Part shown: piece after piece, positions 38,947 to 54,957 of the stretch
How positions within the stretch are numbered: the stretch's first letter is position 1
Layout of the letters: every line of letters begins with the position of its first letter
From: Candidatus Bathyarchaeota archaeon
GTDB taxonomy: Archaea; Thermoproteota; Bathyarchaeia; Bathyarchaeales; DTEX01
Assembly (NCBI GenBank): GCA_963714275.1
Contig: CAVQNT010000002.1
Span: 640,001-704,000, forward strand
Length of the DNA stretch: 64,000 nucleotides
Reading direction: 5' to 3'
Notes under the pieces: generated by a model
The model's input: the letters and a program-made list of their open reading frames with translations, nothing else
Databases searched by the model: none
Told to the model about the DNA's origin: nothing
Program-made: the position numbers and the translations under genes

Positions 38947-40152
38947 TTATCCTCTCCTGATAGCTCCCAATATTGAAGGTAAATCGTTAACTGAAGGTAT
39001 AACTATGTCGCAACCAGACTCTAGGAAACCGTCACGAACAACGTCGTCAAGACCCGAATAATGGTAGACGCTAGCAAAAACGTAACTCTTGCCAGTTTTC
39101 GACGCGTCCTCAGCCATCAAAGCGTCCTCCATGGAATCCCCAACATAAAGCACCAAATTAGGTTCACCAAGTCCCTCTGCAGCCTTAAGAAGCGAATAAG
39201 GATTCGGCTTCCTCAAATTGACCAGCACCCCCTTTTCTTTTGAAAGTTTACGTTCAGCCTCCACCGCATTCTCCAAAAAAATTAGGGCTCTGGGGTCAAA
39301 TTGTTCAATCAAATCTCCCAGAACATATTTTGCGGGTTTAGACCAGCTGCCAGACGCAATGCCGAGCTTTCTTCCGCCTAAAAGCAAGGCTAATTTTTTA
39401 AGAACCGCTGGCTGAACGATAATTTTTTCATTTTCAATCATCCCAGAACCGTTGTTGAAGGCAGGTTCGACCCCGAAAGTTTGTTTAAACAGTTTTGCAC
39501 CGCAAAAGAACTCCTCCTGAGCAGTGGCAATTATGCTTTTACCGACTTCAGCGGGAAAGTAAAGGAAACTACTCAAAACACCGTAAAAGGCATTAAAGTC
39601 CCCGCTTGAGCCAGCTCTTTCAGCCAAGACTTTGTCAACAGACGCTATACCTGACGCGTCGAGAAGCTTCGCGAACTCCTTCAGGTTGCGAACCGTTTCC
39701 TCAAAAAAACCTTCGATCAAGAAACCTTTTTTGAATTCTATTTTTGTACCATTCATAGCCAATGAAAGCCGTTTAAAAGGGTCTTGTTGCGTTCCTATTT
39801 TCGTAATTAGTTTTTTTAGGACGTCCCTACAATCATCTGGTAAGCTGCAGAGAATGAACATGAGGGTTCCATAAACTGTGTCCCAATCGTTGTTGAACCC
39901 TCCGGTCTTTCTGAAAAGGTAGATAACTTCGTTGGAAATCAACCTTTCTGGGACCTCGAAGTTTGTTAGGGCTTTGAGTGTGTAGGAGACGGTTTTGGCG
40001 ATGGCTTTATTGTATGATTCCCGTATGTCAACAAGCACACCGTCGCAGTCGAATATGACACCGTCAACGTGTTTCAGCTGAGAAAGCTTGTCTTTCCTTA
40101 CGTACGCCTTTTGACCGTCAACACTGAAAACGTTATAGTTTTTTACCCACAT
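38947..40152 (-). CDS. HAD-family hydrolase with large cap, candidate histidinol-phosphate phosphatase
   Basis: [28 protein letters not shown]; sits between hisC and hisB. Confidence 0.75.
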
Positions 40153-41268
40153 TCAGCCCAAGACCTCCTTTAAGGCTTTCAGGAACCTGTCCATCATTGG
40201 CTGAGGGGCAACCGTGACCCTTAAACAGTTTTTGCTGCTCAAAACCTGCCCAATGTTTCTCACAATCACGCCTTTGTCGAGGAGCTTCTTGTAGACCGTT
40301 TCTGAACCTTTAACAGTTTGGAAGAGAACAAAGTTCGTTTCAGAACCGAAGGCTCTGACTCCGACGATTTTGTTAAGGGCTTCTATGAGGATGCTGCGTT
40401 GAACTTTTACTTCATCTATGGCTTTGTTGATGACATCCATTCTTCCCAAAATCTTTGAAGACGCCCTCAAAGTGACAAGCGTTACCGTGTATGGCATCTG
40501 GAACCTTTCGTCCATGACCTTTGCCAAGACAGGATTTGAAACTGCACAGCCCAATCTTAAGCCAGCTAAGCCAAAAACTTTTGAAAATGTTCTGAAGACA
40601 ACTAGATTCTCGTAGTCGCCGACCGCTTCGATGATGGAGCTGCCAGAAAAATCAGCATAAGCCTCATCAACCGCAACGATTCCGTCAAAATTTTTTGCTA
40701 AATACTCGATGTCTCGACAGGCAAGACTGTTTGCAGTCGGATTATTCGGAGAGCAGAGGAAGATTACTTTGGTTTTAAGTGAAACAGCGTCCAGCAATCC
40801 TTCTGTGTCAAGGGAAAAATCCTCCTTGAGAGGAACAGGCTTGTAGGTTGCTCCCTGAATTCTTATGCACCGCTCGTAAATCGAAAACGTCGGCGAAATA
40901 GAGAGGGCTTCGTCGTCTTTTCCGAGCATCATCCTCGAGACTAAATCTATGAGATTGTCGCTTCCTGTACCAACCACTATCTGGTTAGGCAAAACCCCGA
41001 GATACTTGCCCAAGGCTTCCTTAAGCTCCACGTATTCGTCTCTCGGATAAATGCGAGGGTCAACCTCACCCACGGATTCACTTAGAATGTTGCGGAGGAA
41101 ATCCAGAGGAACAAAAAAATTCTCGTTAGAGTTTAACTTCAAAATCTGCTCAGGCTTCTTTCCTAATTTACGAGCCAAGCCATCAACCGTTTCTCCGACA
41201 TCGTAAACGCTTAAGCCTTGAGCCTCAGCAAGAACCTTCTTAACGGTTGCCCCGCTTCGTTTACGCAT
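40153..41268 (-). CDS. hisC: Histidinol-phosphate aminotransferase
   Basis: LNSNEN, SPNNPT, DEAY, RTFSKVFGLAGLRLG. Confidence 0.95.
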   Translation of the reverse strand: MRKRSGATVKKVLAEAQGLSVYDVGETVDGLARKLGKKPEQILKLNSNENFFVPLDFLRNILSESVGEVDPRIYPRDEYVELKEALGKYLGVLPNQIVVGTGSDNLIDLVSRMMLGKDDEALSISPTFSIYERCIRIQGATYKPVPLKEDFSLDTEGLLDAVSLKTKVIFLCSPNNPTANSLACRDIEYLAKNFDGIVAVDEAYADFSGSSIIEAVGDYENLVVFRTFSKVFGLAGLRLGCAVSNPVLAKVMDERFQMPYTVTLVTLRASSKILGRMDVINKAIDEVKVQRSILIEALNKIVGVRAFGSETNFVLFQTVKGSETVYKKLLDKGVIVRNIGQVLSSKNCLRVTVAPQPMMDRFLKALKEVLG

Positions 41269-42568
41269 TTTTGAACCGTCCCTCCACAGCCAAAGAGTGG
41301 TTAAGAAGACCCTCTGCTTCAGCCATAACCTTCGCTGTTTTTCTCACTTTAAGGAGTCCTTGCTTTGAACACTCAACGATGTTGAACCGTTTAACGAAAT
41401 CGAAGACCGAAAGCCCAGAGTAAACGTGGCTGAAACCCTCGGTTGGAAGAATGTGAACCGTCCCAAGGCAATAGTCGCTCGCAGCAACAGGCGTGTAATC
41501 GCCAACCAAGACCAAGCCTGCGGACTTAATCTGTTCAGCAACACCCCAGCCATCATTAGACAAAACTTCAAGGTGTTCAGGAGCAAACTCGTTCACGAAC
41601 CCAACAGCCTCCTGAATGTTCTTGCAGACAACTATACAACCGTTTTTTGCTAGATTTTGAGCAACCATCCCGCAATTGGGAACCGTTTTAATGGCTTTTT
41701 GTAACTCTTTTACTACGGATTCTGAAACTTTCTGCGATGTCGTCACAAGAACCGCAACACCGTCCAAGTGCTCTGCCTGAGAAATCAAGTCCAAAGCAAC
41801 CGTACGCGGATTCGTTGTTTCATCAGCCAGCACGACAATTTCGCTTGGACCTGCAGGAACGTCAATCGGCAAATCCTGCGACACCAGCATCTTTGCTGCC
41901 ACGACGTATTTGTTGCCAGGTCCAACCAGCTTGTCAACGGGCTTAATTGTTTCAGTTCCGTACGCCATCGCTGCAACTGCCTGAGCGCCGCCTACTCGGT
42001 AGACTTCGTTGACTCCGCATATGTCTGCAGCCACCAAAATTGACGGGTCAATTTCGCCCTCGCTTCGGGGCGGCGAACAAACAACAATTTCGGGCACACC
42101 AGCGACCTTGGCTGGAGCAATCGTCATGACTAGGCTGCTCGAGTAAGCTGCTTCTCCTCCTGGAACGTAACAGCCTAACCTGCGGATTGGAGCAACGCAG
42201 CTGCGAAATTTTGTTCCGTTTGCTTCATACTGGAAGCTGAGTCGTTGAAGGAGCCTTTTTTGGGATGCTTCGACGCGTCTTTTGACAAACTTAATAGCAG
42301 AAACCTGTGCTCTACTGACTTTCAGATACGCTTTTCTGATGTCTTCGCTGTCCACTTTTATTTGGTTGTTAGACAGTTTCACGCCGTCTAATTTTTGGGC
42401 GAAATCAACGAGGGCTGAGTCACCTCGCTTCTTAACGTCCTCAATTATGGTTTTCGCTTGTCCTGTAACTTCGGAGTCAAAGCGTTTATTGTTCGGCCAT
42501 CTATTCTTTAAGATGGTAGTCTGTGCAGCGGAACAATCAAGCATTCTCATTTTGAGTTCACTGTTCAA
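41261..42568 (-). CDS. hisD: Histidinol dehydrogenase
   Basis: YVPGG, GGAQAV, GPGN, PAGPSE, SQAEH, PEHLE. Confidence 0.96.
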   Translation of the reverse strand: MNSELKMRMLDCSAAQTTILKNRWPNNKRFDSEVTGQAKTIIEDVKKRGDSALVDFAQKLDGVKLSNNQIKVDSEDIRKAYLKVSRAQVSAIKFVKRRVEASQKRLLQRLSFQYEANGTKFRSCVAPIRRLGCYVPGGEAAYSSSLVMTIAPAKVAGVPEIVVCSPPRSEGEIDPSILVAADICGVNEVYRVGGAQAVAAMAYGTETIKPVDKLVGPGNKYVVAAKMLVSQDLPIDVPAGPSEIVVLADETTNPRTVALDLISQAEHLDGVAVLVTTSQKVSESVVKELQKAIKTVPNCGMVAQNLAKNGCIVVCKNIQEAVGFVNEFAPEHLEVLSNDGWGVAEQIKSAGLVLVGDYTPVAASDYCLGTVHILPTEGFSHVYSGLSVFDFVKRFNIVECSKQGLLKVRKTAKVMAEAEGLLNHSLAVEGRFKNA

Positions 42569-43551
42569 CTTTCGCTGTTTCCCCCAAAATTCATCTCGTC
42601 GAGTGGCAGTACTTGGCGAGGCTCATAGACGACCAGTCCCTGAGCGAGCTTCCTTAAGGTCGGCAGAATCTCCAAGAAACGGTCTCTTTCGATGACCGTG
42701 TTCACCGAAAACCAGTCTTTGTCCGAAAGGGGAGAAACCGTTGGTCGCCTTAAAGCAGGCAAACTCGTTAACAGTTTTTCGAGGTTTTTTTTGTTGACGT
42801 TCACGAAGATGTGAAGTTTCTTCCTACCGTCCACGACTCCTCTCAAAAGAGTGATAATGTCGTAGATTTTTTCCTGTTTCGCCGGGTCTCTGAACGCCTT
42901 TTTGTTGGCTATCAAAATTGCGGTTGACTCCATCACAGCTTCCACGGTTTTAAGGTCGTTCTGTTCCAAAGTAGACCCAGTGTCAGCAACGTCGATTATG
43001 GCGTCAGCGTTCTCCGGTGGTTTAGCCTCAGTTGCACCGAAAGAAAGGAACAGGGCAACCTTGTCGTTCTGACCCTTCTTCCACCACGGCGTAATCATGA
43101 GAGGGTCTTTAGCACCATAAAGCGCGTTGTAGACGGGGTTCTTTTTCAGGAATTCCGCTGACAGGTTAAGGTACTCAGTTGAAACCCTCAGGGTCTTTCC
43201 TTGCTTAGAGAAACTTTCCAGCAGTTCTGAAAGGGAATTTATTTCCGTCCAAGGTTTTGGGACAGCTAGGACAAGTTTGACCCATGAGTATTCTAGGTCA
43301 AGCAAGACTTCAACGTCGACCTTGGTTTCCTGCAACCAGTCTTGGCCGGTGATACCTAGGTCTTGCAGTCCTTCGTTGACATAGATGGGGATTTCTTGGG
43401 GTCTCAGTACCTTTAACTCCATCATTGGGTCATTGACCTTTGGACGGTACGTTGTGTCTCCGCCTGAGATTACATATCCTGCGCGTTCCAACGTTTTGAA
43501 CGTGGCTTCTGCCAGGTGTCCTTTCGGGATGGCTAACCTAACTTTCTCCAT
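42565..43551 (-). CDS. hisG: ATP phosphoribosyltransferase (long form)
   Basis: LAIPKG, RPQEIP, DLGITGQD, SFGATEAKPP..ADAIID..TGSTL, C-terminal regulatory domain. Confidence 0.96.
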   Translation of the reverse strand: MEKVRLAIPKGHLAEATFKTLERAGYVISGGDTTYRPKVNDPMMELKVLRPQEIPIYVNEGLQDLGITGQDWLQETKVDVEVLLDLEYSWVKLVLAVPKPWTEINSLSELLESFSKQGKTLRVSTEYLNLSAEFLKKNPVYNALYGAKDPLMITPWWKKGQNDKVALFLSFGATEAKPPENADAIIDVADTGSTLEQNDLKTVEAVMESTAILIANKKAFRDPAKQEKIYDIITLLRGVVDGRKKLHIFVNVNKKNLEKLLTSLPALRRPTVSPLSDKDWFSVNTVIERDRFLEILPTLRKLAQGLVVYEPRQVLPLDEMNFGGNSES

Positions 43552-44925: not shown

Positions 44926-45016
44926 AACACGGAAACATAGTCGAATAAACGAGATAAAGGTTCTTTCACGAATCCATAATCGTGATGAAAGAACCCCGAA
45001 AAGACATCTTTGGTGA

Positions 45017-45817
45017 TTATTTTATGTATTTTTTCAGAGCTGCCTTAACGTCTAAGCCTTCGTGGACGATGCCGCAGATCACGCGGACCATGCTTGCGGG
45101 GTCTTTGTGTTGAAAGACGTTTCTTCCGGTTGCCGCGCCAGCTCCTCCAGCTTTCACTGAATCGTAGACCATCTGGCAAAACTCCGCTTCTGTCTCGGTT
45201 TTCGGTCCGCCCGCCATAATAACAGGAACTGGGCAGCCCTTAACAACCTCTTTGAACGTTTCCAGACTGCCAGTGTAGTTGGTTTTCACGATGTCGGCTC
45301 CGAGCTCAGCGCCTATACGCGCGGCGTGCTTGACAACCTCAACGTCGTACTGGTTCTTAATCTTCTCTCCCCTTGGGTAGACCATGGCTAAAAGCGGCAT
45401 GCCCCAGTCTTCGCATATTTTGGTAACTTCGCCGAGAACCCGTAGCTGTGCAGGTTCAGTTTTCGAGCCGACGTTAATGTGTATCGATACAGCGTCAGCG
45501 CCTAACTTAATCGCCTCAAGAACGTCAGCAACCAACACTTTGTCGTTTGGGTCAGACCCTAGCGAGGTGCTTCCTGAAAGGTGCATTATGAGGCCAATGT
45601 CTTTGCCGTAGCCTCTGTATCCCGCTCTTATGATGCCTTTATGCAGAAGCACGGCGTTCGCTCCGCCTTCCGCTACCTTGTTCACGGCGGTTCTCATGTC
45701 CTCTAAGCCGCGGATTGGACCGTCGGTTAATCCGTGATCCATGGGAATGATGACGGTCCTTCCGGTGTCTCTTTTCATGATTCTGTCCAGTCTGATTCTT
45801 TTTCCGATTTCTGTCAC
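45017..45817 (-). CDS. aroA': 2-amino-3,7-dideoxy-D-threo-hept-6-ulosonate (ADH) synthase, DhnA-type aldolase
   Basis: [36 protein letters not shown]; divergent from the aro operon. Confidence 0.85.
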
Positions 45818-46184
45818 TTTTAATACACCTTAGTTGGATGGTTTGGTCTGAACTGCCCGTAAAATAAACGAGGTTAAGGCATAAAAGATTTTGCTTTAAT
45901 AAAAGTATATGCCATCTTGTTGTCAGTTTTTATAGATTCTTCTGGTCTGTTTTGTTCAACATCAGGTTTTGCTGTTTGAATAACATTTGCTGTTTTCGAG
46001 AGGCTATCTGATTTGTGTAACAATCAAGTTTTCCGTTTGCATAACAATATTAAAACTTGTGAAAAATGACCTGTTTTAAAGCATGTTTGTTTCGCGGTTT
46101 TGGAACAATTTGACCAAATTTGTAGTTAGTTTCTAGGCTGAACATTTTTTATAAAACGGTCATGAAAGAGTGTTCTCTGTTTTC

Positions 46185-46228
46185 ACAAGGCTTAAATACG
46201 ACTTAAAGGTAGAAACGTGGCGCGGAGA
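46185..46228 (+). promoter_or_regulatory. Archaeal promoter and SD for the aromatic-operon leader
   Basis: CACAAGGC-TTAAATA (TATA 46192..46198); GGAG at 46224..46227, 9 nt before ATG 46237. Confidence 0.6.
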
Positions 46229-46236
46229 ACCCGAAA

Positions 46237-46323
46237 ATGCACAGAAAATGTTCATTAAGGCTTCTCGGCACGATCCGTGCGTTTCGTTTCTTTAGCTGGT
46301 ATACTAAATATACCACATATTAG
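46237..46323 (+). CDS. Leader peptide MHRKCSLRLLGTIRAFRFFSWYTKYTTY (28 aa)
   Basis: ATG..TAG with SD; last 13 codons contain 3 Phe, 1 Trp, 3 Tyr, 3 Thr, 1 Lys; directly upstream of the aspartokinase-aro operon. Confidence 0.75.
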   Translation: MHRKCSLRLLGTIRAFRFFSWYTKYTTY

Positions 46324-46326
46324 GCT

Positions 46327-46375
46327 GGAAGAGCCAACACATTCGCATTCCATCCGTCTCTGGTTCTTCCTTTTT
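46327..46375 (+). terminator. Attenuator-like hairpin plus U-tract
   Basis: GGAAGAGCCA (46327..46336) pairs with TGGTTCTTCC (46361..46370) over 10 bp with one G-U, immediately followed by TTTTT. Confidence 0.65.
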
Positions 46376-46388
46376 GGGGTTGTTGAAA

Positions 46389-47664
46389 ATGAGTGTAAAC
46401 AAAAATAGAAAGATGCTCGGTCGAATCGTCGTCAAGTTCGGCGGCACAAGCCTAGCTGACGGACTCGGCATTTTCCACGCCGCGGAATCCGTTATCAAAA
46501 AAGCGAAGCAGGGCGTTCAAGTAGTGGTTATTGTCTCAGCTATGGGAAAATCCACAGATGCTTTGATTGAAACGACTCGCCAAGCCTGCGAAGGCTCGGG
46601 TTCAAACGTGGACTTAGACGACGTCGTCGCAATGGGCGAACGCATTAGCGCTAGAATCTTTTCAGCCACGCTGAAGGCACAAGGAATATACAGTCATTAT
46701 CTGGACCCTTCACATCAAGACTGGCCAATCATTACGGACGACAATTTCGGGAACGCCAGCCCCATTTTGCCTGTTTGCGAGAAACTAATCAAACATCATG
46801 TTCAGCCATTGCTTGAGAAAGGTGTGACGGTTGTCGTTCCTGGCTTCATCGGCAGAACTGAAGACGGCAGAACAACGACGATGGGAAGGGGAGGAAGCGA
46901 CATAACGGCTTTTGTCTTGGCTCAAGCCTTGTCTGCAGACCTGATTTTGTTAGTCACTGACGTTCAGGGCATATTGACGGCTGACCCGAAAATCATCAAG
47001 AACCCTCGGAAGCTCAACGAAATATCAATCGACAACCTTATAGGGTTAGCTGACTCCGGAACCAAATTCATCCATAAAAAAGCCTTAAAGTACAAGACAC
47101 CCAAAATAGACGTAAAAGTCGTCAGCAACGCCTCCAGCGACTTGGATTTGGATGGAACCTTGATACGTGGAGGGTTCCCCCAAAACCTGCTTGTCGAATC
47201 GCACCCAGACTCAGCCGCAGCAATCACAATAGTGGGAAGGGGTCTTTCGGAATCACCTCAGACTCTTTTTAGGGTTTTCAGTGAGATTTCGAAGGCTGAC
47301 GCTCAGCTTTTGGGGATGTCTGTTAACCATAATTCCATAATTTTGTATCTGCCTTCGAAGGCTGCTGAAGGCATCCTAGAATCCATCCATTCGATCGTGG
47401 TCAGCGACGAAAAGGCTCAAGCTGATGGCGGTGAAAAAGGACCTTACTTTTGTTAGGGTTAAAGGTGTCGGGTTAGAGGACACTCCTGGAGTTGTAAGCA
47501 ACATAACTAAAGCCTTAAACTCTGAGGGTGTCAACATCTATGGGATTTTCACTATCACGTCAAGCGTTGTGATCTTCGTGGACTTTAAGGACGAGGAAAA
47601 AACGGTTCGTCTAATGAAAAAAACCTTGACAATGAATCACAATGGGCAATTTAAAGCCCTTTAA
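46389..47664 (+). CDS. lysC: Aspartokinase with ACT domains (frameshift near 47420)
   Basis: VVKFGGTS, VSAMG, MGERIS, TTMGRGGSD, TDVQG..ADPK, C-terminal DTPGV ACT. Confidence 0.92.
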
Positions 47665-47678
47665 AGGAGACGAAGAAG

Positions 47679-48774
47679 ATGCGGGAACTATGGGTTAAAA
47701 TCAATCCTAACTTATCCTTGAAGGGAAAGAAGATGGTTGTCGAAAAGACGGCTACGTTAGTTTCAGTCTTCATTGTTGAACCTCAGGACCTCGAATTAGT
47801 GAAAGAGTCGGGAGCGAAGACAACAGCAAGTTCGACTGAAAAAGGAGACATAATGATAGTAGAAGGTCCCAAAGAAATCGCCAAAGCTAGACAGACTGGA
47901 AAGAAAACGTGCATTCTTGTGACGGTGAAATCAAAAGCGGACGAAGCCAAAATCGAGGCTGCAGACTGAGGCTTCAACAGACTATGTAGCGGTTGAGTGC
48001 CCAGACTGGAAAGTCATTCCTTTAGAGAATCTCATCGCGAAGGTGCACGGGAAAACTAAGCTGCTGGCTGTTGCATTAAGCGTGCAAGAGGCAAAGACGG
48101 CGCTTGAGACTCTTGAGATAGGGGTTGACGGAATCGTGGCATACCAGACGAACGTAAATGAAATAATAAAAATCAGCGAGGTCATAAAGGAAACCAAGAC
48201 AAGAACGGATGAGGAGGAGTCAATCAAAACAATATCGCTTCTCCCTGCCAGAGTGACCGAAATTAAACCTCTTAGCTCAGGAGCTCGGGTATGCATAGAC
48301 ACATGCGATCTCATGAGGGAAGGCGAAGGCTTGCTCGTCGGATGCCAGTCTAACGGTCTTTTCCTCGTCGAAGCTGAGGTTCATGAAACACCGTTCGTTG
48401 CTCCTCGCCCGTTCAGAGTTAATGCTGGGTCAATCTCGCTTTATGTTCTTGCGCCGGACGGTAAAACCCGGTACCTTTCGGAGCTTAAAGCTGGAGACGA
48501 GGTGCTGATAATTGACCGAAACGGAAGACCGAGAACGACGAACATAGGTCGCGTAAAAATAGAGTGGCGACCGTTGCTGATGATTGAGGCTGAATGCCAA
48601 GGGAAAACTGTCAAAACAATATTGCAAAACGCTGAAACCATAAGAGTCGTCACGGAAAAAGGAAGCAAATCCGTTAAAGACATGAAAGCTGGCGACACAA
48701 TTATGGTGCGGTTTGAGGAGGGCGGCAGACACTTCGGAACCCTTGTTAAAGAAGAGAAAGTGATTGAAAGGTGA
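47679..48774 (+). CDS. aroB': 3-dehydroquinate synthase II (frameshift near 47965)
   Basis: DWKVIPLENLIA, RVCIDT, RPFRVNAG, YLSEL, LQNAETI, RHFG. Confidence 0.93.
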
Positions 48775-49470
48775 AGCCTAGAATCTGTGTTCCGCTGCCG
48801 GTCGAAAGGCTCTCTGACCTTACATCAATGATTAAAAGAGCTGAGAACGCGGGGGCGGACTTAATCGAGATACGTTTAGACTACTTAAAAGACACCCAAA
48901 GTCAGCTGAGATGCCGTGAAAGAGGTAATCAGCCAAGTTTCAGTGCCCCTAATTGCTACAAACAGGGAGCACAGCCAAGGAGGAAAACGGGTCCAAAAAG
49001 AAGAACTGAGAGTTCAAACTTTGGTTAAAGCAGCTGAAATCGGTTTTCAGTACGTCGACATCGAATTGACCACGGCAAGTTTAGAAACAATTGTCAAAAA
49101 AATTCTGGACTGCAGTTCAAAACCCATCATCTCATTCCACGATTTTAAAGGCACGCCTTCAGACTCGGAAATGGAAAACATCGTAAATTCACAGATTAAG
49201 GCAGGAGCGTCCATCTGCAAGTTAGTCACAACAGCAAAAATCCTCGACGACAGCGTCAGATGCCTACTTTTCACTCAAAAAATGAGCAATGTCACGGACA
49301 TCGTTTGCTTCGCCATGGGCAGCCAAGGCGTCCTTTCAAGGATTCTTTCGCCTTTGTTCGGGGGATTTTTTACCTTCTCTGCGCTTGAGGTTGGCTTAGA
49401 GACTTCTTCGGGCCAAATCTCATTAACCGAGCTAAAAGAACTCTACAGGAAATTAGGTGTCAACGCATGA
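48771..49470 (+). CDS. aroD: Type I 3-dehydroquinate dehydratase (frameshift near 48910)
   Basis: GADLIEIRLD, ATNR..GG, YVDIE, ISFHDF..TP, FAMG..SR. Confidence 0.92.
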
Positions 49471-50348
49471 AGATCTCAGGGAAAACTAAGGTCTGCGGGT
49501 TGATAGGAGACCCAGTAGAGCACTCTTTAAGCCCTTGTTTTCAAAACGCTGCTTTTCAGAATCGAGGCTTAGACTTTGTTTACGTCGTTTTTAAAGTAGA
49601 AAAGGGAGGACTTGAAGCAGTCATCGCAGGAATGCGGAGCTTAGGGATATTCGGGTTAAATGTTACGATGCCTTACAAGATCGATGTTATCCAGTATCTC
49701 GACGAGTTAGACGAGACAGCGAAAAGCATCGGATCAGTCAACACCATTCTAAACAAGAAAGGAAAGCTAATTGGGTTCACGACGGATGGCAAAGGCGCCC
49801 TCGAAGCCCTAAAATACAATGGCGTAGAGCTGCCAGGAAAAAAAGTAGTGGTCTTAGGAGCTGGAGGTGCTTCCAGATCAGTTTCTTTGACTCTGGCTAA
49901 AGAGGTTAAGGAACTAGTGATCCTAAATAGGACTTTAGGGAAAGCCGAGGAACTCGTCAAAGAACTCAAGACGACTCAGGCTGTCAATGCATCCGTTAAA
50001 GCTGAAGAACTCAATCATCATAATGCTCAACAGGAGCTGCGGAACGCTGACATCCTCGTCAACGCAACATCCATGGGCATGCGTCCGCATGACAGGTTGA
50101 TGCCGGTGGATTCGTCGTTTCTACGGTCTGATTTGGTGGTTTTCGACCTCGTTTACGAACCTCTTGAGACAAGGCTGCTTGTGGAAGCAAAGAAAAAGGG
50201 AGCGACAACAATAGACGGACTGACCATGCTTGTGTTTCAAGGAGCCGTTTCCTTCGAAACTTGGACAGGCGTAAAGGCGCCAGTGGAAGTGATGATGGAG
50301 GCTGCTGCAGAGGAAATAGCTCAAAGGTCAACAAGTAAAAGGGGATAA
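49467..50348 (+). CDS. aroE: Shikimate dehydrogenase
   Basis: GDPVEHSLSP, NVTMPYK, SVNT, GAGGA, NATSMG, DLVYEP. Confidence 0.95.
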   Translation: MKISGKTKVCGLIGDPVEHSLSPCFQNAAFQNRGLDFVYVVFKVEKGGLEAVIAGMRSLGIFGLNVTMPYKIDVIQYLDELDETAKSIGSVNTILNKKGKLIGFTTDGKGALEALKYNGVELPGKKVVVLGAGGASRSVSLTLAKEVKELVILNRTLGKAEELVKELKTTQAVNASVKAEELNHHNAQQELRNADILVNATSMGMRPHDRLMPVDSSFLRSDLVVFDLVYEPLETRLLVEAKKKGATTIDGLTMLVFQGAVSFETWTGVKAPVEVMMEAAAEEIAQRSTSKRG

Positions 50349-50352
50349 TAAT

Positions 50353-51224
50353 GTGGCTGACGTTGGAAAAGCGGTTGCGTATGGTGCTGTGACCGTCATA
50401 AACGCCATCTCATGCGGATTTGGTGCTGCCCTCAGCATCGACCTAAAAACTGAAGCCACCGTGAAACTGACTGACGAACCGGGTCGGATTAAGGGGCGAA
50501 TATTGTCAGACCTAGAGGAAAGCCCAGCTCTCATTGAGAAGACTGTTAGTCAAGTTTTTAGATGGTTCGATCTTGAACATGAACATGGCGCTTACGTGGA
50601 AACGCAATCGAACATTCCCATAGCACGCGGTCTAAAAAGCAGCAGCGTGGCAGCTAACGCAATAACGCTTGCATCACTAGCAGCATTGGGAAAAAAAGTT
50701 AGTGACCTAACTGCAGTCAACATCGGAGTGGACGCAGCCTTGGATGCTGGAGTTACAATTACAGGCGCATTTGACGATGCTTGCGCATCCTTTTTCGGAG
50801 GCATCGTAATCACCGACAATTTTAGAAGAAAAATTATGAAAAAGATTCAGCCTCCAGAAAAGCATCCAATTCTGATACATGCGCCCACAGCCAAAGCTTA
50901 CACGGCTGATTCGAACGTGCGGAAAATGAAAATCATATCTGAGGAGGCGAAGGCTCTTCACAGAATGGCTTTTCGCGGAGACTGGATGGCAGCCATGACG
51001 CTGAATGGATTATTATATTCAGTGGTTCTGGAATACGACCCAAACACAGCTATCGACGCACTGGAAGCAGGAGCTCAGCTGCAGGATTATCGGGAAAGGG
51101 ACCAGCAGTCGCTGCCGTTGTTCCACGAGAAAACGTCAACAGCGTAAGGGAAGCATGGAAAAAGTTTGGCGGCAACGTAATTGAGGCTAAGATTAACACT
51201 GAGAAAGCCCACAGATTATGGTGA
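50353..51224 (+). CDS. aroK: Archaeal GHMP-type shikimate kinase (frameshift near 51075)
   Basis: GAVTVINA, PIARGLKSSS, TITGAFDD, TDN, shifted GLSGKGP. Confidence 0.92.
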
Positions 51225-52525
51225 CCAATGTGACTGATCTCATCGTTAAACAAGTAGAAAGCCTAGACGGAACCGTTAAAGCGCCTCCTTCAAAGTCTTT
51301 CACGCACCGAGTCATAATCGCTACTTCGCTTTCGGAAGGTCGCTCGATAATCAAAAACGCGCTTTTCTGCGACGACACGTCGGCGACCCTTGAAGCATGC
51401 CGTATGCTGGGAGCCAGAATAGACCAGAATGAATATGGTGCCCTAAAAATTGATGGGCGTTCTAAGCCTTTAACGCCTGAAGATGTGATTGACTGCCGAG
51501 ACTCAGCTTCGACGATGCGGTTTCTCGCCCCAGTCTGCGCGTTAGCGGACGGCATATCGGTGTTAACGGGCGGAGAAAGCCTTCGCCTGAGACCCATGGA
51601 ACCTGTTTTGTCAACGTTGATGCAGCTAGGCGTTCTTTGTTATTCTGCGAGGGGAGACAATCATCCGCCATTGATTGTTTTCGGAGGAGGAATCACAGGT
51701 GGCGAAGTCGTTCTCAAAGGAGACGTAAGCTCACAGTTTACGTCAGGATTGCTTTTTGCATCGCCTTTGGGAGAGAAAGACACAGATATTATATTGTCGA
51801 CTCCTCTCGAGTCCAGACCTTACGTGGAAATGACGCTGGATGTTCTGAGAAAGCATGGGTTAAATTTTGAGGTCCAACGCGATTACGGGCAGTTCCACGT
51901 GCCTTGCCAGCAAACTTACAGTCCATCCGACCACGTTATAGAAGGCGACTATTCGTCAGCAGCGTTTCTTCTGGCAGCAGCAGCCATAACAAAATCGAAC
52001 GTAAAGTTAACGAACCTTCGAAGCGATTCAGTTCAAGGTGACCGTGCAATCGTCAAACTGCTCAGGGAAATGGGCGTTCAAGTCAAGGTGGGTAAAGGCT
52101 CCGTAGAAGTCCAAAACGTGAAAAACGAGTTAAGACCCATAGATGTGGACCTTAAAGACAACCCAGACTTAATCCCAGTGATGACTGTTGCTTCTTGTTT
52201 TGCAGACGGAAAATCCCTTATTCGCGGTACGAAGAGACTGCGACTTAAGGAGTCTGACCGTGAAACTGCTTTGCTCAGCGAGTTGATGAAGGTGGGCGCA
52301 AAAATCAAGTCCACCAAAGGCATAATACAGGTCGAAGGCACAAAAAATCTCAAAGGGGCACAGTTGGATTCGCACGGGGATCACAGGATAGCGATGGCTT
52401 GCGTTGTCGCTAGTTTAAGGGCTGCCGGAACAACAACCGTTAAGGGCATCGAATGCATAAATAAGTCGTACCCCGATTTTGTTAGAGACATCGTTTCCTT
52501 GGGAGCGGATGTTGTTGAGCGGTAA
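51218..52525 (+). CDS. aroA: EPSP synthase
   Basis: PPSKSFTHR, SLRLRPM, SSQF, LRLKESDR, GDHRIAM, KSYP. Confidence 0.96.
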   Translation: MVTNVTDLIVKQVESLDGTVKAPPSKSFTHRVIIATSLSEGRSIIKNALFCDDTSATLEACRMLGARIDQNEYGALKIDGRSKPLTPEDVIDCRDSASTMRFLAPVCALADGISVLTGGESLRLRPMEPVLSTLMQLGVLCYSARGDNHPPLIVFGGGITGGEVVLKGDVSSQFTSGLLFASPLGEKDTDIILSTPLESRPYVEMTLDVLRKHGLNFEVQRDYGQFHVPCQQTYSPSDHVIEGDYSSAAFLLAAAAITKSNVKLTNLRSDSVQGDRAIVKLLREMGVQVKVGKGSVEVQNVKNELRPIDVDLKDNPDLIPVMTVASCFADGKSLIRGTKRLRLKESDRETALLSELMKVGAKIKSTKGIIQVEGTKNLKGAQLDSHGDHRIAMACVVASLRAAGTTTVKGIECINKSYPDFVRDIVSLGADVVER

Positions 52526-53616
52526 CTCAATAAGCAAAATTCTGGTCGTCACATGCTTCGGAGAAAGCCACGGACCATGCGTCGGAGCAGTTGTAGATGG
52601 ATGTCCAGCGGGTTTACCCATAACTTCCGATGACATACAAACTGAGTTAAACAAGAGAAAATCTGGATTAACAGCAGTCAGTACGCCGAGGAGGGAAGAA
52701 GACCAAGTCGAGATTCTTTCAGGAGTCTTCAATGGGCATACTACCGGCGCACCGATCTGTCTGATTATTGGGAACCGGGATGTTGAACCGGAAGCCTACG
52801 AGCATATGAGACACAAACCTAGACCTGGACACGCTGATTACATAGCCTACATGAAATACGGCGGATTCAACGATTACAGAGGCGGAGGACGATTCTCCGG
52901 ACGTGTCACAGCAGCATACGTCGCGGCGGGAGCAATCGCCAAGAAACTGTTGACACAAATAAGCGTTGAAGTATTAGCGCACACGGTTCAAATCGGTAAG
53001 ATAAAAATCACAAAAAATGTTTCATACGACCAAATTCGCGAGAACGTTTATGATAATGCTGTCCGCTGTGCAGTGCTCGAATCCGCTGATCTCATGGAAA
53101 AAGAAATCCTGAAGGCTGCGGAAGAAGGGGATAGCCTTGGAGGTGTAGTTGAGGTTATTGCCTTAAACGTTCCAGCTGGACTGAGGTGAGCCAGTTTTTG
53201 ACTCGTTGGATTCGGACATTGCTAAGATGATGTTCAATATTCCAGCCGTTAAAGGCGTGGAGTTTGGCGCTGGTTTTCAGGTGGCTTCTCTAAAAGGTTC
53301 AGAAAACAACGATGCATATGTCATACGGAAAGGAAAGGTTACCTCTCCAACCAACAATGCAGGTGGGGTTCTGGGCGGACTCTCAACAGGCATGCCGATT
53401 GTCTTAAGGGTCGCGTTTAAGCCAACGTCCTCAATAGCGAAAAGGCAAAAAACTGTTGATCTGACAAAAATGAAGGAAACCGAGATTGAAGTTGCGGGTA
53501 GACATGATTTGTGCATCGTGCCGCGTGCTGTGCCAGTCGTGGAATCTTGCCTTGCTTTGGTTCTGGCGGATCATGCGCTCAGAGCTGGGAAGATACCTAA
53601 AGTAATTAAGGCTTAA
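52509..53616 (+). CDS. aroC: Chorismate synthase (frameshift near 53185)
   Basis: FGESHG, RPGHAD, RGGGRFSGR, GGLSTG, FKPTSSI, GRHD. Confidence 0.95.
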
Positions 53617-53695
53617 TTTTGGATTCTGTCTTCTTTTCACGTTTCAGAACAGTAGGCTTTAATGTCTATTATGATTCTATCGTTTATAGACCGTT

Positions 53696-54957
53696 ATGTC
53701 TCGTCTTTTAGGCGTGATCGCGGACGATTTCACAGGCGCATGCGACGCTGGCATCCAATTCAGAAAGTGTGGTCTTGAAACTGTTGTTTTGGCTGACGTT
53801 GAAAAAATACGCGAGTTTAAAGATGCTGCGGACATCATTGTTGTTGACACCGAAACCAGAAACCTTGACCCAAAGGCAGCTTACGATAAAGTGAATCAAA
53901 CGCTGAAAACTTTTCAAAAGATCGACGTTAAACTTGTCTATAAAAAAATCGATTCAACACTTAGGGGAAACTTCGGAGTTGAACTTGACGCTGTTCTGGA
54001 TGAACCGACAATCAGAGGCGTTTTAGTGGCTTCATCTTATCCGCAACAGGGCAGAACCGTCGTAAATGGGCAGGCTTACGTTAAAGGTGTCTCGCTTGAA
54101 AAAACGGAGTTTGCCTATGAATTATTGAGTCCAGTGAAAGATTCTCATGTTCAACCGCTGATAGAAAGGCAATCCAACCGAAAAATTGGGCTTTTAAACC
54201 TGTCCATGATTAGAGCTGGACCTGACGAATTGAGAGATCATCTAGAAAAGCTTTTGGAAAAAGGCAACAGAATAATCGTGGCTGACGCTGAAACCCAAGA
54301 AGACCTAGACAAGGTTGCGAAAGCTTCTATCGATCTGAACCTTTTGCCCTGTGGGTCAGCTGGGCTGGCTGAGAAAATCGCTTTGTCAATGACTTCTAAG
54401 AAGCGGTTGCTTGTAGTTTCAGGAAGCGTTAACAACGTGACGCTTGACCAGATTGAAACGGCAGAAAAAAGCTTGGGATTCCAATTGTTGAACCTGACCT
54501 CGACGAAATCTTGGTAAGCGACAAAAAACTGCGAGTTGCAGCAACCAATCTTGCTGATAAGGCTGTAACAGTCCTTCGGGAGACGGGAATCGTCACAGTT
54601 AGGCTTGCAAGCTCCAGAAATGTTATTCAAAAAACGTTAGATTTAGGCGAAAAGCTTGGTTTAAGCCGCATGCAAGTTGTTGAAAAACTTCTTTCTGTCT
54701 TAGGTTTGGCTGTAGGTGAAGTTTCTAACCATTGTAGGCTAAACAGTTTGGTCTTGATAGGAGGTGATTCTTCGGCGAAAGTAATAGATGCGATTGGGGC
54801 TGAAGGAATAAGGATTGAGGTTGAAATTTTTCCCAGCATATCGATGGGCAGAATCCATGGTGGTAAACATGAAGGGATGTTAGTTGTCACAAAGGCAGGC
54901 GGATTCGGTGACAAACAAACACTTGTAGATGTCATCAATTATTTAGAAAAAATTTAA
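53696..54957 (+). CDS. Four-carbon acid sugar kinase family (DUF1537) protein (frameshift near 54480)
   Basis: IADDFTGA, YKKIDSTLRGN, GSAGLA, GGD, TKAGGFG. Confidence 0.88.

Follow-up and report, generated by a model that had tools for sequence, protein, structure and literature searches.

Does this archaeon regulate its aromatic amino acid operon by following a ribosome along a short leader peptide? The question is raised by a 64,000-nucleotide stretch of DNA from Candidatus Bathyarchaeota archaeon, referred to here as the window (all coordinates count from its first letter). Within it, an open reading frame (ORF) dense in aromatic codons stops just short of a hairpin, and the hairpin borders the Shine-Dalgarno (SD) sequence of an aspartate kinase paralog that heads an aromatic biosynthesis operon. 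An earlier note, made from the letters of the DNA only, had described the hairpin as a terminator and had proposed an antiterminator fold over the leader codons, with the ribosome selecting between the two. We consider the element to be a ribosome-sensed cis-regulator of the aromatic operon, with a probability of about 80%. What stands firm is a conserved leader rich in Phe and Tyr codons together with a covarying hairpin next to its stop codon; the name "terminator/antiterminator" is half right at most. The argument depends on the following features:

46237..46323, plus strand: leader ORF of 28 codons, with stop codon TAG at 46321-46323
46327..46370, plus strand: stop-adjacent hairpin, with arms 46327-46336 and 46361-46370, loop 46337-46360, and a predicted energy of -13.9 kcal/mol
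46371..46375, plus strand: T5 run between the hairpin and the SD, a candidate archaeal termination or pause signal
46376..46391, plus strand: kinase SD (GGGG, 46376-46379) and start, with ATG at 46389
46389..53616, plus strand: the operon that would be controlled, encoding the aspartate kinase paralog, 3-dehydroquinate (DHQ) synthase II, aroD, aroE, archaeal shikimate kinase, aroA, and aroC (NCBIfam matches)

The leader and its stop-adjacent hairpin

Seven of the last 13 sense codons of the leader specify aromatic residues (F16, F18, F19, W21, Y22, Y25, and Y28), and the predicted peptide ends in A-F-R-F-F-S-W-Y-T-K-Y-T-T-Y. The main stem, which begins 3 nt past the TAG, has 10 pairs, one of them a G-U pair (G46333-U46364), and encloses a 24-nt loop; apart from the G-U pair, this reading bears out the 10-bp stem plus T5 that had been described between the leader stop and the kinase SD. 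Compared with 300 dinucleotide shuffles of its segment, the hairpin has a z score of -2.19, with a fraction of 0.023 of the shuffles being as stable. The wider region (46222-46400) is unexceptional in folding energy (z = -0.87). A simple terminator scanner omits the hairpin, as it accepts loops of 3 to 8 nt only, and an inverted-repeat search limited to Watson-Crick pairs overlooks the stem owing to its G-U pair. In a simple promoter and terminator scan, a 5-bp hairpin at 46268-46280 was found at chance level (1 found, 0.8 expected). A scan of 45800-46500 against Rfam 15 with permissive filters gave two chance-level matches (E = 2.2 and 3.6), far under their gathering scores, and no leader family.

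To place the element among its relatives, we used 59 distinct leaders (duplicates removed) from upstream of orthologous aro-linked aspartate kinases. They represent numerous Bathyarchaeia families as well as further classes within the phylum. An identical arrangement was found upstream of all 13 kinase orthologs from relatives, as well as upstream of all 8 additional orthologs from named metagenome-assembled genomes. The first base of the stop codon is separated from the first paired base by 0 to 9 nt in 59/59 leaders (median, 2 nt), and the gap between hairpin and SD in relatives is 1 to 8 nt. Among the last 14 residues of 52 leaders, Phe and Tyr make up 25% each and Trp makes up 1.8%. When resolved by codon over the 59 leaders, the aromatic frequency is 0.47 to 0.86 at positions -3 to -12, with peaks at -4 (0.86) and -5 (0.76), and is lower near the stop (0.49 at -1 and 0.32 at -2).

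The stem itself covaries. Across 18 sequences, 96.1% of cells are paired and 9 of the 10 pairs include a double change, a result that none of 500 shuffles reached; slid controls of the same stem pair at 45 to 61%. When 25 leaders were folded individually, the hairpin appeared in each (mean z = -3.1; 18 of the 25 below -2), and RNAalifold on a full-length MAFFT alignment recovered the main hairpin alone. Stem sequences nevertheless differ wholly between lineages, with purine-rich arms in the window's family, GCCGCGACC-type arms in L052, and GCCCAGAAC-type arms in family f10. The hairpin is under selection. Architecture, conservation, stem covariation, and geometry are matters of observation, and they support the earlier description of a ribosome-readable aromatic leader with a hairpin between its stop and the kinase SD.

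These comparisons also bear on whether the leader is a sensor at all. The ORF could instead encode a functional aromatic-rich microprotein, or be untranslated, with the hairpin acting as a constitutive structure of the 5' untranslated region. Translation of the leader is a prediction, and peptides within a family do share motifs such as a terminal YTT[YF], as might be expected of a microprotein. Across families, however, only composition (Phe plus Tyr, ~50%) and position ahead of the aro operon are kept, rather than motifs. In addition, the leader SD is conserved, and the element accompanies the aro-linked kinase only. A leader without a sensing role therefore strikes us as very unlikely. Individual leaders vary in other ways: L069 (G049) has seven consecutive Tyr codons, and L107 to L111 end in F-G-P or Y-G-P before the stop, a context of slow termination in bacteria.

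The distribution of the element was taken from kinase synteny because the covariance model built for it (R1, based on 15 sequences) is narrow. Out of 47 genomes of the family, R1 finds a single copy in each of 17, and it finds none in 23 genomes of genus g6; in a class-wide sample, 4 of 151 genomes have a match. In the sampled g6 genomes, the best kinase matches are 39 to 45% identical, which is the level of the second, non-aro kinase. Of 401 genomes sampled from the class, 151 contain the aro-linked paralog (E <= 1e-90). In 29 of 40 genomes taken from these 151 (~20 families), the upstream ORF has at least 6 aromatic residues among its last 14 codons and is followed by a hairpin; the 11 genomes lacking such a leader belong mostly to families f26 and f35. 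Outside the class, a leader with at least 6 aromatics in the last 14 was found at 8 of 18 sampled loci. Four f26 genomes (L086, L102, L103, and L104), which have no aromatic leader, share a short motif upstream of the kinase, M-G-D-x-L-F-G-D-G-V-Y..., that could mark another kind of upstream ORF or the terminus of some other gene. Finally, a strict scan of the whole genome for further amino-acid-rich leaders that have a hairpin and precede a gene gave 11 candidates, of which the aro leader alone was convincing; a loose version of the scan gave 1648 candidates and was uninformative.

Three further features lie at the 5' end of the leader:

46182..46198, plus strand: promoter-like element, TTCACAAG followed by TATA-like CTTAAATA, with columns invariant or nearly so in a 15-sequence alignment (A1)
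46224..46228, plus strand: leader SD (GGAGA), 8 nt before the ATG at 46237
46221..46269, plus strand: helix P1, formed by the leader SD region (46221-46231) and the Arg-Leu-Leu codons (46259-46269), present in the minimum free energy (MFE) fold

General knowledge of archaeal promoters suggests that 46182..46198 is a B recognition element followed by a TATA box, and promoter spacing would then place the transcription start at about 46215-46222. The SD segment CGGAGA is invariant in 15/15 sequences of alignment A1. For P1, RNAalifold gives 9 pairs that are formable in 8/8 close relatives, with 90.3% of cells paired and covariation nearly nil. This helix may gate the leader's own translation.

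Ribosome position and the competing fold

The influence of a leader ribosome was modeled by masked partition-function folding of 25 leaders, with a footprint assumed to extend from -15 to +12 relative to the A site. In 20 of the 25 leaders, the hairpin has a probability above 0.6 when no ribosome is present. For the window, this probability is ~0.9 with the A site at F16 to Y25, drops to 0.2 at Y28, and reaches 0 at the stop. Similar behavior was seen in most of the 25 leaders: a ribosome on upstream aromatic codons leaves the hairpin intact, and the hairpin disappears only when the A site is at the last one to three codons or the stop. As modeled, stalling on the control codons favors the hairpin and completion of the leader prevents it. 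This is the behavior of the 2:3 helix in bacterial attenuators, and a hairpin favored by stalling is the reverse of what a terminator in a biosynthetic operon requires. Masked folding does make the hairpin depend on ribosome position, as the earlier note expected; for the window, the positions that remove it are confined to the stop and the two codons before it.

In the scheme of the earlier note, the hairpin and T5 form a terminator, the Phe-Phe-Ser codons pair with 46323-46334 to form an antiterminator capped by a 7-bp hairpin, and stalling leads to read-through, as in a classical attenuator. Two features make up the proposed antiterminator:

46286..46297, plus strand: 5' strand of the alternative fold (Arg-Phe-Phe-Ser codons), pairing with 46323-46334 in the local MFE fold
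46297..46315, plus strand: 7-bp apical hairpin, 46297-46303 paired with 46309-46315 around the loop CTAAA, over the W-Y-T-K-Y-T codons

Part of this scheme holds for the window. When 46282-46340 is folded alone, the MFE structure (-12.4 kcal/mol) is the extended alternative capped by the small hairpin. Both this fold and the main stem use 46327-46334, and the two are therefore mutually exclusive, as had been claimed; their local energies are similar (-12.4 versus -13.9 kcal/mol). Over the full leader up to the T-run, the energy is -40.4 kcal/mol with the hairpin and -36.6 kcal/mol with the 3' arm single-stranded, a difference of 3.8 kcal/mol. The 7-bp hairpin is indeed present in the sequence and, like the main hairpin, occurs in both the MFE and the centroid folds. 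It is, however, specific to the window. In L002, whose kinase is 87% identical, it is destroyed, and small hairpins of unrelated sequence occupy the same place in L003, L015, and L066.

Among relatives, the alternative fold was evaluated on transcripts cut before the 3' arm. In a first group (8 sequences, A5), RNAalifold pairs the Phe-Phe-Ser codons with the spacer and the 5' arm (10 pairs; 95% of cells), and the proposed extension is accordingly formable in 8/8 close relatives. In a second group (9 sequences), a different, 5-bp pairing joins Ser-Gly-Tyr codons to the inner 5' arm (93% of cells). The helices of both groups are register-specific, with slid controls at 22 to 59%. Their covariation is no better than that of shuffles: one pair in group 1 and two pairs in group 2 show a double change, and the observed pairing is reached by 36/500 and 60/500 shuffles, respectively. 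Given so few double changes and shuffle-level pairing, the pairing potential is explained by sequence conservation. Covariation, one of the checks named in the earlier note, is found in the main stem and not in the alternative helix, and the Phe-Phe-Ser extension is absent from other lineages.

The 5' arm was also searched for upstream partners more generally. In the window without the 3' arm, it pairs upstream with a mean probability of only 0.16. Over the 59 leaders, the best upstream partner of the stop-plus-5'-arm segment, compared with those of shuffled arms, gave a mean z of -0.81, with 6/59 below -2. A duplex search of the upstream leader with the 5' arm, covering 25 leaders, gave a mean z of -0.98, with 2 below -2. 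In family f10, the best upstream partners reach about -5 to -12 kcal/mol, versus about -11 to -23 kcal/mol for the hairpins. In favor of the classical scheme, one leader, L006, has a perfect 13-bp alternative helix (-21.5 kcal/mol; z = -4.5). A general antiterminator was rejected, as the 5' arm has no competitive partner in most other families.

Geometry argues in the same direction. The 5' strand of the antiterminator consists of the control codons themselves, as it would in a 1:2 helix, so a stalled ribosome masks the very strand that stalling is supposed to favor, and the hairpin probability stays at ~0.9 with the ribosome at F16, F18, or F19. The claim that stalling selects the antiterminator is not supported for this reason. 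In addition, the stop codon lies 3 nt from the supposed terminator, and in masked folding a terminating ribosome would cover the stem rather than free it. This stop-blocking geometry is the opposite of that in trp-type attenuators such as trpL and pheL. The alternative fold is a peculiarity of the window's clade, and its logic is opposite to that of an antiterminator. Despite the near-equal local energies, the formable helix in close relatives, and the second subgroup that pairs other control codons with the 5' arm, we regard a classical attenuator as improbable at this locus.

Output of the element

Two outputs had been suggested for the hairpin, namely termination (at the U-tract or through FttA/aCPSF1) and a change in SD accessibility. 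In the window, the stem and T5 are both present, and together they have the form of a bacterial intrinsic terminator (10-bp stem, 24-nt loop, U5). This terminator-like form does not extend to most leaders, as a U-run of at least 4 follows the stem in just 12 of 52 leaders and one of at least 5 in 6 of 52. The runs occur mostly in the window's family, and that of L037 lies beyond the SD. A U-run of at least 4 is also found inside the hairpin loop in 27/52 leaders (e.g., L004, L008, L077, L085, and L097), often after a pairable A-run; AT-richness may explain these cases.

Archaeal transcription termination can be hairpin-independent. At ordinary gene ends in this genome, runs of at least five T residues occur within 80 nt after 429/1503 long ORFs versus 330/1503 random segments, a weak enrichment. 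The 40 nt before such gene-end runs are no more stable than shuffles, with a mean folding energy of -3.98 kcal/mol versus -3.58 kcal/mol, and 3.3% of them are at or below -10 kcal/mol. Because gene-end T-runs occur without preceding hairpins, a hairpin plus T-run is not the ordinary terminator of this organism. On this basis, we take the T-run to be an archaeal signal that acts without a hairpin, and the hairpin to be a regulatory addition.

SD accessibility fared less well as an output, with no consistent switch across leaders. Averaged over 33 leaders, the probability of an unpaired SD is 0.39 in the absence of a ribosome; for a ribosome at the stop, -1, -5, and -10, it is 0.34, 0.31, 0.42, and 0.39, respectively. 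The probability falls in 11 leaders and rises in 9. In the window alone, the probability drops from 0.59 to 0.24 through pairing of the loop with the SD and start region, an effect that is absent in L002. SD sequestration of the ermC/cat type was rejected, given that the SD lies outside the stem and that two rounds of masked folding gave no consistent change in accessibility. A family f47 hairpin that appeared to hold the SD was dropped, as the start codons place the true SD downstream of that hairpin.

We favor a mechanism in which the aromatic amino acid operon would be governed by a leader-peptide attenuator, with the hairpin and T5 as its 3' module. This mechanism presumes that the leader is translated and that ribosomes stall on it, and it also presumes the entire output, sign included. 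Hairpin formation would be decided by the position of the leader-translating ribosome. While a ribosome occupied the Phe/Tyr codons (A site at -3 or further upstream), the 5' arm would be free and the hairpin would form; in the window's clade, the stalled ribosome would also cover the Phe-Phe-Ser codons that compete for the 5' arm. A ribosome at the last codons or the stop would cover the 5' arm and preclude the hairpin. Such a device would need three segments (control codons, 5' arm, and 3' arm), with the hairpin replacing the bacterial 2:3 helix and with no fourth segment. The hairpin would be a starvation signal that keeps the operon on, as it would shield the nascent RNA behind a polymerase slowing at the T-run and so protect it against oligo-T or FttA/aCPSF1 termination, which needs no hairpin. 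With charged aromatic tRNAs available, the ribosome would reach the stop, the pyrimidine-rich 3' arm and the T-run would be single-stranded, and transcription would end.

This specific version, in which the hairpin means "on" at the level of transcription, is put forward tentatively and at less than even odds. Slightly less probable is the broader idea of archaeal three-segment attenuation, in which a stop-abutting hairpin would be the starvation conformer and would act as an antiterminator by keeping U-rich nascent RNA from being single-stranded, as an old design across Bathyarchaeia and other classes of Thermoproteota.

Several points weigh against the favored mechanism. The organism is uncultured, and the element is known here purely from genomic sequence. 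A hairpin directly before a U-run is the signature of a bacterial terminator, and we know of no hairpin that inhibits archaeal termination; the protective role is proposed on regulatory logic. In the window's family, the codon at -1 is always aromatic, and stalling there would melt the hairpin. Of 52 leaders, 40 have no T-run, so output through the T-run is not the common mechanism, and lineages without it require another output under either sign. Two of the supporting analyses also have built-in leanings: the 18-sequence alignment used for covariation was fitted to the structure, which favors the stem, and masked folding describes equilibrium at 37°C, perhaps not the growth temperature of the organism.

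The sign could also be reversed by direct occlusion. Here, the hairpin would be a negative element that, in the window's family, brings about termination at the T-run and in other lineages impedes initiation at the adjoining SD, and one or more ribosomes on the last aromatic codons would unwind the 5' arm and turn the operon on; fast termination and release would let the hairpin re-form. An aromatic codon does occur within the last three codons of all 59 leaders, the last one being at -1 in 29, at -2 in 17, and at -3 in 13. In 58/59 leaders, the first base of that codon is 3 to 13 nt from the first paired base and thus reachable by the leading edge of the ribosome, and masked folding loses the hairpin at just these terminal positions. 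The abutment of hairpin and SD (1 to 8 nt) and the terminator-like stem plus U5 would also fit a negative role. On the other hand, the lead ribosome would stall first at upstream codons, with the hairpin still folded, which is the wrong sign for a one-shot transcriptional decision. The aromatic frequency at -1 and -2 (0.49 and 0.32) is below that at -3 to -11, the SD lies beyond the stem with no consistent change in its predicted accessibility, and the missing T-run in 40/52 leaders counts against this explanation as well. We judge direct occlusion to be somewhat unlikely, and yet the opposite sign, with a negative hairpin relieved by ribosomes queued on the last codons, is nearly as likely as the favored version.

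A further possibility concerns mRNA stability. A stalled leader ribosome and the hairpin might block 5'-to-3' decay or endonuclease entry, giving a longer-lived operon mRNA in starvation; the logic is that of ermC mRNA in Bacillus. The stalled ribosome, hairpin, and SD would lie edge to edge with almost no naked RNA between them, and the hairpin is kept even in leaders without a T-run. Such protection would not require the tight spacing of stop and stem, however, and the present analyses, which do not address decay, identified no nuclease site or processing signal. This explanation appears quite improbable.

The aromatic operon and comparison with known systems

The operon begins directly downstream of the leader and spans the genes from the aspartate kinase paralog to chorismate synthase, as judged from NCBIfam matches; relatives show this linkage as well. 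An ADH synthase gene (45017-45817, minus strand) is divergent to it. The operon is the aspartate-semialdehyde-dependent common aromatic pathway, an assignment that we take from general knowledge of ADH synthase and DHQ synthase II. This genome and its relatives have two aspartate kinases, of which one is the aro-linked paralog. In the window, five consecutive genes (46389-54957) are each split into two overlapping or adjacent ORFs:

46389-47664: aspartate kinase
47679-48774: DHQ synthase II
48771-49470: aroD
52479-53616: aroC
53696-54957: threonate-kinase-like gene

By comparison with L002, the break in the kinase fits a single-base indel near 47425. The splits look like assembly indel errors rather than pathway decay; the assembly comprises 10 contigs.

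Two other observations concern the neighborhood. A his cluster at 38947-43551 (minus strand) contains hisG, hisD, hisC, and a HAD-type hydrolase gene, and no His-rich ORF was seen upstream of hisG within the window. A perfect 10-bp inverted repeat at 44959-44995 (GGTTCTTTCA / TGAAAGAACC, 17 nt apart), followed by a T-rich stretch, lies immediately downstream of the stop codon of the minus-strand ADH synthase gene. The two arms are similar to those of the leader hairpins in relatives L005 and L007.

The element looks like bacterial ribosome-sensing leader control and yet is built differently. The best-known leader-peptide attenuators are those of Escherichia coli, namely pheL-pheA, trpL, hisL, thrL, and leuL. 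As in the pheL/trpL type, a short ORF with its own SD, rich in codons for the end product, lies in the leader of a biosynthetic operon; a stem and then (in the window) a U-run precede the first gene, and the 5' arm has a competing pairing. Unlike that type, the element is archaeal, has three interacting segments, and lacks a terminator hairpin downstream of the 2:3-like helix. Its stop lies 0 to 9 nt from the stem, such that a terminating ribosome covers it, most lineages have no U-run, and no Rfam family matches it.

In the ermC and cat systems, a stalled leader ribosome opens a hairpin that hides an SD. The present leader likewise ends beside a hairpin that adjoins the SD of the regulated gene, and a ribosome at the leader end would melt it. 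However, the SD is outside the stem and shows no consistent switch, and the signal would be hungry codons rather than a drug.

For tnaC-tnaA, a ribosome arrested at the leader stop is reported to block the Rho entry site (PMC8429421). The likeness lies in a decisive ribosome at the very end of the leader and in factor-dependent termination just downstream, for which FttA/aCPSF1 could be an analogue. In contrast, tnaC senses free tryptophan through its nascent peptide and induces a catabolic operon, whereas here composition is what is conserved and the operon is biosynthetic. Mycobacterial cysteine-rich leaderless short ORFs are described in a preprint as attenuators (bioRxiv 10.1101/834739). 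They resemble the present case as amino-acid-specific short ORFs upstream of a matching biosynthetic operon, outside the enterobacterial scheme; they are, however, bacterial and leaderless, and the likeness is one of description rather than of structure.

In two articles, attenuation is treated as a bacterial consequence of coupling, and FttA, aCPSF1, and archaeal coupling are cited (PMC13681488 and PMC7858274). Among the excerpts returned by full-text literature searches, we found no report of an archaeal amino-acid-sensing leader peptide or leader-peptide attenuator. The element is thus a concrete, widely conserved, sequence-defined archaeal case that links ribosome position to a hairpin beside an oligo-T tract. 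As such, it offers a means of studying communication among the archaeal polymerase, FttA/aCPSF1, and the lead ribosome. The element also identifies the aspartate kinase paralog as the step at which regulation of the aspartate-semialdehyde-dependent aromatic route begins.

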